Shown in pieces: positions 9,072 to 9,516 of a DNA stretch of 64,000 nt (its first letter is position 1; each line of letters starts with the position of its first letter). Source of the stretch: an uncultured Rhodospirillaceae bacterium (GTDB lineage Bacteria; Pseudomonadota; Alphaproteobacteria; CAAGCB01; CAG-977); NCBI GenBank assembly GCA_900550445.1, contig URSF01000001.1, positions 223-64,222 on the forward strand. The letters are read 5' to 3'. The notes below the pieces were generated by a model. The model made no database searches, was not told the origin of the DNA, and saw only the letters and a program-made list of their open reading frames with translations. A program made the position numbers and the translations under genes.

Positions 9072-9146
9072 GCGGGTGTAGCTCAGGGGTAGAGCGCAAC
9101 CTTGCCAAGGTTGATGTCGAGGGTTCAAATCCCTTCGCCCGCTCCA
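9072..9146 (+). tRNA. tRNA-Gly (GCC)
   Basis: 75-nt cloverleaf GCGGGTGTAGCTCAGGGGTAGAGCGCAACCTTGCCAAGGTTGATGTCGAGGGTTCAAATCCCTTCGCCCGCTCCA. Anticodon loop is UUGCCAA. Confidence 0.95.
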
Positions 9147-9183: not shown

Positions 9184-9236
9184 TGGATACAGGCAGGGGG
9201 CTTGAACCCTCGGGTTCGGCCGAAGTATGGCAAACA
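9184..9236 (-). other. tRNA 3-prime-half-like fragment (T-arm-like plus ...TCCA end), no matching 5-prime half
   Basis: The minus strand reads ...CCGAACCCGAGGGTTCAAGCCCCCTGCCTGTATCCA. An 11-mer, CGAGGGTTCAA, is identical to the tRNA-Gly T arm but in inverted orientation. I could not build an acceptor stem partner. Confidence 0.3.
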
Positions 9237-9291: not shown

Positions 9292-9363
9292 TGGTCTCTG
9301 CGACGGTTTTGATTCCGCATCTACTCAGTGACAGTGAGTTGCTTTCCCTTAAGCTACACAGAG
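9292..9363 (-). tRNA. tRNA-Asp (GUC)-like gene with non-canonical T arm
   Basis: 72 nt: CTCTGTGTAGCTTAAGGGAAAGCAACTCACTGTCACTGAGTAGATGCGGAATCAAAACCGTCGCAGAGACCA. It has a 7-bp acceptor stem, U8, a 4-bp D stem with GG in the loop, a 5-bp anticodon stem and the loop CUGUCAC (identical to the E. coli tRNA-Asp loop as I recall it), discriminator A and CCA. The T arm, however, is only GCGG/CCGT with the 8-nt loop AATCAAAA, with no GTTCRA. Confidence 0.5.
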
Positions 9364-9388
9364 ATAAGATCTTCACCCCTCTATTCTT

Positions 9389-9417
9389 AATATCGCATAC
9401 TTCGACGCTTTTTTCAA
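9389..9417 (-). promoter_or_regulatory. candidate promoter of the tRNA-Asp-like gene
   Basis: The minus strand has TTGAAA, a 17-nt spacer, then TGcGATATT (extended -10). The -10 element ends 25 nt before the tRNA-like 5-prime end. Confidence 0.4.
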
Positions 9418-9516
9418 GAGTAAATATAAGATGTTTTGTATCTGATTGAAAAATAAGTTCTTTTTTAAAAAGAATCGTATAAAGCATTCAGAATGTAAAC
9501 ACGGCTTTATAAAACG

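Follow-up and report, generated by a model that had tools for sequence, protein, structure and literature searches.

A 64,000-nucleotide stretch of DNA from an uncultured Rhodospirillaceae bacterium, an alphaproteobacterium of the gut or rumen (GenBank assembly GCA_900550445.1, contig URSF01000001.1), the whole of which is referred to here as the window, was found to carry on its minus strand a 72-nt gene resembling that of an aspartate transfer RNA (tRNA). Judging from its sequence, this is a genuine, conserved gene for an unusual tRNA, in which an Asp anticodon is joined to a Pro-type acceptor end and an aberrant T arm. The family to which it belongs is multi-copy and genus-restricted, joins the extra or deviant tRNAs already known as a class, and combines this hybrid identity with an Asp/Glu anticodon switch inside one genus. 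Extra deviant tRNAs have repeatedly led to new biology, as in the case of the staphylococcal cell-wall tRNA-Gly, the Bacillus tRNA-Other, and the Pro-mistranslating tRNA-ProX of Streptomyces. The genome under study (2.16 Mb) is designated G000, and the other species of the same genus (15 species in total) have designations of the same form, such as G001 or G014.

Structure and Detection of the tRNA-like Gene

The full minus-strand RNA is CUCUGUG-UA-GCUU-AAGGGA-AAGC-A-ACUCA-CUGUCAC-UGAGU-AGAU-GCGG-AAUCAAAA-CCGU-CGCAGAG-A-CCA. It comprises a 7-bp acceptor stem (CUCUGUG/CGCAGAG) followed by U8, a D arm (GCUU-AAGGGA-AAGC) whose short loop contains G18/G19, an anticodon arm (ACUCA-CUGUCAC-UGAGU) with a 5-bp stem and a 7-nt loop including U33, the GUC anticodon and A37, and a 4-nt variable loop (AGAU). 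The elements of the transcription unit, all on the minus strand, were as follows.

9417-9412, minus strand: -35 hexamer TTGAAA (sequence and promoter scan)
9397-9389, minus strand: extended -10 element TGcGATATT, after a 17-nt spacer from the -35 hexamer (sequence and promoter scan)
9382-9364, minus strand: 5' leader of ~15-20 nt, purine/G-rich, with UUAU directly before C1 (sequence)
9363-9292, minus strand: tRNA body, 72 nt, non-canonical, with C1-G72, A73, encoded CCA and a 4-nt variable loop
9332-9330, minus strand: anticodon GUC in the loop CUGUCAC, which is that of the host canonical tRNA-Asp
9314-9307, minus strand: aberrant 8-nt T loop AAUCAAAA on the 4-bp stem GCGG/CCGU, without G53-C61 and without U54-U55
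9295, minus strand: discriminator A73 (read from the sequence)
9294-9292, minus strand: encoded CCA (read from the sequence)
9287-9258, minus strand: intrinsic terminator, with the hairpin AAAAGCCGGG-UUUUAUA-CCCGGCUUUU (9287-9261) followed by a U run (precursor fold)

A preliminary description of the window had proposed a 72-nt minus-strand cloverleaf with GUC, A73 and CCA, and the sequence is as described there. The Rfam tRNA model (RF00005) matched it end to end over model positions 1-71 with 49.4 bits (threshold 29; E = 1.4e-7), while the three canonical tRNAs in the window scored 66-69 bits. The cloverleaf was predicted to be the minimum-free-energy structure, accounting for 51% of the modelled ensemble, and the 131-nt precursor was predicted to fold into the cloverleaf plus the terminator hairpin (z = -3.1). 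The aberrant T arm, a 4-bp stem with an 8-nt loop devoid of the canonical motif, was likewise confirmed: a canonical T arm (5-bp stem, G53-C61, 7-nt loop U54-U55-C56-R57-A58) is not found in this RNA, and the Rfam alignment places an A-A mismatch at positions 53/61. The closeness to organellar tRNAs that had been proposed on this basis amounts to a loose resemblance only.

The use of tRNA finders and a search for a second tRNA-Asp, both suggested as checks, gave a mixed outcome, namely, ARAGORN returned no tRNA call at 9363-9292, Infernal accepted the gene, and a canonical tRNA-Asp(GUC) with G73 was present at C40:13314-13391 of the same genome. The variant of the G001 type was called tRNA-Asp by ARAGORN. 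Annotation pipelines will either miss such a gene or name it tRNA-Asp or tRNA-Glu.

Distribution, Copy Number and Conservation

A covariance model (R1) was built from 10 homologues and used on the 15 species of the genus; its terminator helix was bracketed two columns off (helix 5 only 33% paired), and its tRNA part was correct. Matches at 104-147 bits were obtained in 7 of the 15 species, and the next-best matches (<=62 bits) were ordinary tRNAs with a terminator downstream, which leaves a clear score gap. No family member was detected by covariance-model search in 13 other genomes of the same family/order, nor was any found in ~400 other alphaproteobacterial genomes from ~300 other genera, and exact-pattern scans of 185,000 species genomes together with viral and metagenome contigs recovered no organisms beyond the carriers. 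A unit differing by one base from that of G001 over the ~185 nt shown was observed in L063 (CASEGL010000005.1), labelled as an uncultured Rikenellaceae (Bacteroidota) bin; this contig looks mis-binned.

The 162-nt unit extending from the -35 hexamer to the terminator occurred six times in the G000 genome, namely, on C1 (the window), on C19, and as tandem pairs on C17 and C34. No differences were found between the six bodies (0/72), whereas their promoters and leaders formed two classes with 7 differences over 54 positions; the flanks were unrelated. Such identity of the bodies, set against differing promoters and leaders and unrelated flanks, points to selection, or conversion plus selection, acting on the mature RNA. 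Each canonical anticodon species is represented by one gene in this genome, so that the tRNA-like unit is the only tRNA-type gene to have been amplified.

The four tRNA helices were 100% paired in the 10 homologues, with compensatory double changes in six pairs and compensation seen in the acceptor and anticodon stems; the observed covariation was reached by none of 500 shuffles. The invariant part of the molecule includes C1-G72, U8-A9 and A26, the AGAU variable loop, the D arm (a single base of its loop excepted), the ACCA end, and the frame of the 7-nt anticodon loop (C32-U33-N-U35-C36-A37-N); C1-G72 together with A73 was invariant in all nine distinct family sequences. Six of the seven acceptor pairs varied with compensation. 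All eight T-loop columns varied among the homologues, even between copies inside G012 and inside G014, so that what is usually the most conserved part of a tRNA varies freely in this family. Taken together, these data suggest that the gene is under selection for a lineage-specific, non-canonical tRNA. They are also in agreement with the earlier proposal that the gene is not decayed, as promoter, body and terminator are kept across species, the stems covary, and the six bodies are identical.

Copies at the same locus in related genomes, for which the preliminary description had recommended a search, were found at three orthologous positions: between an FlgE-like gene and an amino-acid kinase gene (G000, G003, G009, G012), between the genes for rubrerythrin and FMN reductase (G000, G004, G009), and between a HAD hydrolase gene and tRNA-Gly (G000, G012). 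Because copies occupy orthologous loci in different species, the family must be old within the genus, with its members evolving in concert, and a recent mobile insertion was rejected. A recent duplication of a host tRNA was rejected as well, since the body shares at most 51 of 72 identities with any canonical tRNA and 44 of 72 with tRNA-Asp. No conserved neighbour gene was found at the copies, which are flanked by unrelated housekeeping genes, and no prophage context was seen around them.

Between the terminator of the window copy and the tRNA-Gly gene, at ~9190-9236 (minus strand), a 3'-half relic of a tRNA-Gly-like gene was observed, with a T arm containing CGAGGGTTCAA and the end ...TCCA. 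This relic points the opposite way to the intact tRNA-Gly (9072-9146) and may be the remnant of an old rearrangement or integration at the locus.

Promoter, Terminator and Upstream Sites

The -35 hexamer was kept as TTGAAA or TTGCAA in six of the seven carrier species, being degenerate (TTTAAA) in G001, and the extended -10 element was kept across the homologue alignment. The UUAU just upstream of the first nucleotide of the body and the G-rich tract were kept in most carrier species; the 5' leader is presumed to be removed by RNase P. The terminator was kept across the carrier species with some stem changes, and promoter and terminator persisted even where the whole unit was only ~75% identical to the window unit. 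It should be noted that a simple terminator scan gave no call on the hairpin of the window unit, though the hairpin is part of the predicted minimum-free-energy fold of the precursor.

The promoter and terminator claimed for the gene are thus present, as indicated by the promoter scan and the precursor fold, but they are not a special feature, because most canonical tRNA genes of this genome likewise have them. Most of the latter are monocistronic, with their own promoter of the TTGACA/TTGCAA...TATAAT type, a short leader, and an A/T spacer followed by a hairpin and a T run; all 43 canonical tRNA genes encode CCA. Since the canonical genes mostly share the layout of the unit, the cell is equipped to handle such units in the manner of tRNA genes.

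In the whole 2.16-Mb genome, the palindrome TGTGA-N6-TCACA occurred in perfect form just twice, at C17:32736-32751 (L019) and C19:37938-37953 (L007), and both sites were located 6-8 nt upstream of the -35 hexamer of the C17 and C19 tRNA-like copies. In the orthologous copies of G009 and G012, the palindrome arms were kept and the spacer was variable. Such sites were absent upstream of the window copy and of the second copies in the tandem pairs. The presence of these CRP-like palindromes suggests that a regulator of the CRP/FNR type controls some of the copies.

Another motif, TTATTTTTCAAT, followed by the imperfect palindrome AGATAC-AAAA-CATCT, was observed upstream of the promoter in the window (9429-9455, minus strand). 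It was also present upstream of other copies without the CRP-like site (C17b, C34a, G012 C43, G004 and G014), and in G012 the adjoining palindrome was perfect (AAGATA-N5-TATCTT).

Identity Elements

The anticodon was GUC in four species (G000, G009, G012 and G001) and CUC, which reads a Glu codon, in three (G003, G004 and G014). The loop of the GUC type (CUGUCAC) is exactly that of the host canonical tRNA-Asp and contains all of the determinants G34, U35, C36 and C38, which belong to the identity set of bacterial tRNA-Asp (PMC9976931). The loop of the CUC type (CUCUCAA) is that of the canonical tRNA-Glu(CUC) of G000, G004 and G014, whereas the canonical loop of G003 has C38 instead. The T-stem pairs 49-65, 50-64 and 51-63 follow the same pattern: the GUC type shares G49.U65/C50-G64/G51-C63 with tRNA-Asp, and the CUC type shares A49-U65/C50-G64/G51-C63 with tRNA-Glu(CUC). 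Positions 34, 38 and 49 change in concert, taking either the Asp-like or the Glu-like state of the canonical tRNAs.

According to the thermodynamic-compensation model, Asp and Glu tRNAs require tight-binding bodies. Summation of the increments that the three T-stem pairs contribute to the affinity for elongation factor Tu (EF-Tu) (PMC3239215, Table 2) gave a sequence-based prediction of -1.1 kcal/mol for the GUC type (tightest) and -0.7 kcal/mol for the CUC type (near-tightest).

The acceptor end is of a different kind. A73 was found in every homologue, whereas the host canonical tRNA-Asp has G73, and the combination of C1-G72 with A73 is limited, in the canonical set of 43 tRNAs of the host, to the three tRNA-Pro. 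The family offers a clean case of switching between an Asp and a Glu anticodon in one genus, and keeps the acceptor end of a third amino acid, Pro. Compared with canonical bacterial tRNA-Asp, the window RNA likewise has G34, U35, C36, C38 and G10, along with the anticodon loop and the three T-stem pairs identical to those of the host molecule; it differs in A73, C1-G72, U2-A71, the 4-nt variable loop, the short D loop, and the lack of G53-C61, U54 and U55. The original label tRNA-Asp(GUC) therefore holds for the anticodon, but not for the acceptor end, which lacks G73, G1-C72 and G2-C71 and is of the Pro type, nor for the three sister species with CUC. Because the Pro-type acceptor end is invariant and the T loop varies freely, the RNA is not regarded as an ordinary tRNA-Asp.

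Possible Function and Alternative Explanations

The reading tentatively favoured, which still falls short of being probable, is that of an accessory, chargeable isoacceptor entering translation with Asp, or with Glu in the CUC species. A ~130-nt precursor would be transcribed from the unit's own sigma-70-type promoter, cleaved by RNase P at C1, and trimmed of its terminator-bearing 3' trailer as far as the encoded CCA. The resulting 72-nt L-shaped RNA would be aminoacylated mainly via its anticodon loop, a copy of the tRNA-Asp loop or, in the CUC species, of the tRNA-Glu(CUC) loop of G000, G004 and G014. The charged RNA would then be carried by EF-Tu, for which its T-stem pairs 49-65, 50-64 and 51-63 form the tight-binding set of the canonical Asp/Glu tRNAs, and would serve at GAY codons, or at GAG where the anticodon is CUC. 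The steps from transcription and processing to charging and use on the ribosome are all inferred here from sequence, while the structure and its conservation, the number of copies, the species distribution and the agreement with canonical identity features are observed. In favour of this reading are the covarying cloverleaf with its 49.4-bit match, the identical bodies, the orthologous loci, and the invariant U33, A37, 7-nt loop and CCA, as well as the joint switch of positions 34, 38 and 49, the tight EF-Tu-type T stem, and the gene layout shared with most canonical tRNA genes. Should the RNA be charged and used, it would reveal to what extent bacterial translation depends on the T loop and on acceptor identity.

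A number of observations weigh against an accessory isoacceptor. Bacterial Asp identity needs G73, G1-C72 and G2-C71, the last two pairs being strictly conserved (PMC9976931), and all three elements are absent from the window RNA (A73, C1-G72, U2-A71). All 15 species have a canonical tRNA-Asp, and each species of the CUC type also has a canonical tRNA-Glu(CUC), so the tRNA-like gene is not needed for a complete decoding set; 8 of the 15 species lack it according to the covariance model. Six copies are odd in a genome in which each canonical anticodon species has one gene. A hypervariable T loop without G53-C61, U54 and U55 is unexpected for a ribosomal substrate, and the body is 71-81% identical between the two anticodon types, compared with 97-100% for canonical tRNA-Asp across the genus. 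Finally, codon and amino-acid usage gave no clear signature of the gene. The Asp content of G000 was not raised, and no Asp-rich proteome feature was found; the share of GAG among Glu codons was 0.16 in G004 and G014 (CUC type) versus 0.11 in G002 and G013, matched in guanine–cytosine (GC) content, a comparison confounded by phylogeny, and G003, also of the CUC type, had no raised GAG use.

Possible as well, though unlikely, is a tRNA mimic without a decoding role, that is, an abundant decoy, sponge or regulator displaying the anticodon loop of tRNA-Asp or tRNA-Glu to some factor, which might be an aminoacyl-tRNA synthetase, an enzyme that modifies the anticodon, or a nuclease or toxin that competitors or phages direct at the anticodon. 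The exact copying of the host anticodon loops, the high gene dosage, the patchy accessory distribution (7 of 15 species of a single genus), the fast evolution of the acceptor stem and the freedom of the T loop are all consistent with such a role, and the conserved palindrome resembling an operator ahead of some copies hints at regulated expression. However, the invariant ACCA end, C1-G72, the 7-bp acceptor stem and the EF-Tu-type T-stem pairs would be superfluous for a pure anticodon-loop decoy, and none of the copies is linked to a gene for a candidate nuclease or partner. A role as a T-box effector or decoy was excluded, because no match to T-box RF00230 was found in the genome. If the RNA is neither charged nor used, it represents a new kind of tRNA mimic.

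A related case is tRNA-Other of Bacillus cereus, which is reportedly a single gene tied to T-box control. PMC3399842 describes this pseudo-tRNA as not working in translation, yet affecting cell physiology, and as flanking a genomic island; it is tRNA-shaped and lies outside the canonical set, as does the present RNA. In contrast to tRNA-Other, the present family comprises several copies with a canonical anticodon loop, and it occurs in a genome without T-boxes.

Donation of an aminoacyl group outside the ribosome is regarded as quite unlikely. The general pattern does recall the non-proteogenic (NP) tRNA-Gly NP1-3 of Staphylococcus (PMC7826273), in which several extra isoacceptor genes of one lineage likewise have a proteogenic anticodon and a T loop without UUC; those RNAs bind EF-Tu poorly and feed Fem transferases (PMC7826273). 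The T stem of the present RNA is, by contrast, predicted to be a strong rather than a weak EF-Tu binder, its host is a Gram-negative alphaproteobacterium, and the transferase families FemAB (PF02388) and DUF2156/aaPGS (PF09924) were absent from all 15 genomes of the genus. The only aminoacyl-tRNA transferases found, Aat and Bpt, belong to the N-degron pathway and use Leu/Phe-tRNA, and there is no additional synthetase or transferase whose occurrence among the species follows that of the RNA. The genes for Aat (PF03588; C17:28432-29016) and Bpt/ATE (PF04376, PF04377; C19:41667-42392) each lie ~3.7 kb from a tRNA-like copy, which is probably a coincidence, the locus-A flanks there being syntenic across species.

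The absence of an extra synthetase tracking the RNA was apparent for class IIb (AspRS and a ~360-aa paralogue), for GluRS1/GluRS2 and for class IIa (Thr/Ser/Pro/His), the gene counts being essentially equal with and without the RNA, and a dedicated synthetase was rejected on these grounds. PF00587 genes numbered four in almost all of the 15 genomes and three in two of them. No second prolyl-tRNA synthetase (ProRS), of the ProRSx type, was present in any of the 15 genomes, and no synthetase gene adjoins any copy. Only the two species with tandem CUC-type copies have a third PF00749 gene (G004:C4:133-948 and G014:C15:103736-104548), which at ~295 aa is as long as a protein of the GluQRS/YadB type; it is absent from G003, which is also a CUC species, and thus does not track the RNA.

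These enzyme counts bear on an improbable explanation, a dual-identity tRNA of the tRNA-ProX type, in which the housekeeping ProRS would recognise G72/A73 and load Pro, so that Asp/Glu codons would partly be read as Pro in regulated mistranslation. The tRNA-ProX molecules (tRNA-ProA, ProN and ProT) of Streptomyces and Kitasatospora cause Ala, Asn or Thr codons to be read as Pro (PMC10404621). The two families are alike in certain features: both have a narrow lineage and a Pro-type C1:G72 plus A73 with a non-Pro anticodon, and in both the anticodon differs among homologous members, so that database names would follow the anticodon. The invariance of C1-G72 and A73, otherwise a property of only three tRNA-Pro among the 43 canonical tRNAs, agrees with this explanation, as do the charging of ProX tRNAs without a Pro anticodon by the E. 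coli ProRS (PMC10404621) and the possible operator upstream of some copies. Nevertheless, the ProX hallmarks A33, A34, A15:A48 and G21 (PMC10404621) are absent, the present RNA having U33, G34 or C34, a presumed A15:U48, and A21. Unlike tRNA-ProX, the present family has no linked or extra ProRS isoform, is multi-copy, has a degenerate T loop, and carries Asp/Glu anticodons in which U35 and C36 take the place of the ProRS determinants G35/G36; its anticodon loop and T stem are copied from the canonical Asp/Glu tRNAs rather than from Pro. Moreover, conversion of Asp to Pro at 5.6% of codons from six strong-looking promoters would be very toxic.

Still less probable is a hybrid-identity tRNA, with the Pro-type acceptor end set onto exact copies of the Asp or Glu anticodon loop and T stem, for which the housekeeping ProRS and AspRS/GluRS would compete, Pro being inserted at the codons of acidic residues, possibly under the control of the CRP-like operator; bacteria would in that case have arrived at programmed mistranslation a second time, independently and with a multi-copy gene.

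A tRNA pseudogene in decay, or a selfish repeat without function, with which the missing ARAGORN call, the degenerate T loop, the presence of canonical tRNA-Asp and the absence from half of the genus would agree, is very improbable, given that all helices are fully paired through compensatory changes, the body is identical in six copies with differing flanks, promoter and terminator are kept down to ~75% whole-unit identity, the copies occupy orthologous loci and so are not recent insertions, and the ACCA end is invariant along with the frame of the anticodon loop, the variable loop and the D arm.

Phage-like D Arms and Other Observations

Several tRNAs of viral and metagenome contigs (L066, L067, L072 and L073) likewise have the D arm GUAGCUUAAGGNAAAGCA and non-standard T loops, and the body of the present RNA is also relatively AT-rich. 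Further tRNAs with this compact D arm and odd T loops were observed in L077 and L080, also viral and metagenome contigs; examples with the same D arm include one tRNA resembling Trp(CCA), whose T loop is UGCAAGC, and another resembling Ala(UGC), whose T loop is GUCGUAU. There are hints that D arms such as GUAGCUUAAGGNAAAGCA are typical of phage-borne tRNAs, and a phage origin of the family is at most a possibility. Unlike phage tRNAs, the present copies are chromosomal, occupy orthologous loci between housekeeping genes, have promoters and terminators of the host type, and encode CCA.

Divergently oriented to the C19 copy, likely by chance, lies a gene of the beta-CASP/RMMBL ribonuclease-like kind (C19:38461-40155). 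The transfer-messenger RNA (tmRNA) of this genome was called as the permuted, two-piece type, in keeping with a place among the Alphaproteobacteria. No match to canonical tRNA-Glu(CUC) was obtained in four species, and the GC content ranged from 41 to 58% within one 'genus'. In G000 and 12 relatives (L104-L134), GAG was strongly avoided, making up 3-16% of Glu codons (0.46% of all codons in G000), whereas CAG accounted for 30-71% of Gln codons and AAG for 15-28% of Lys codons.

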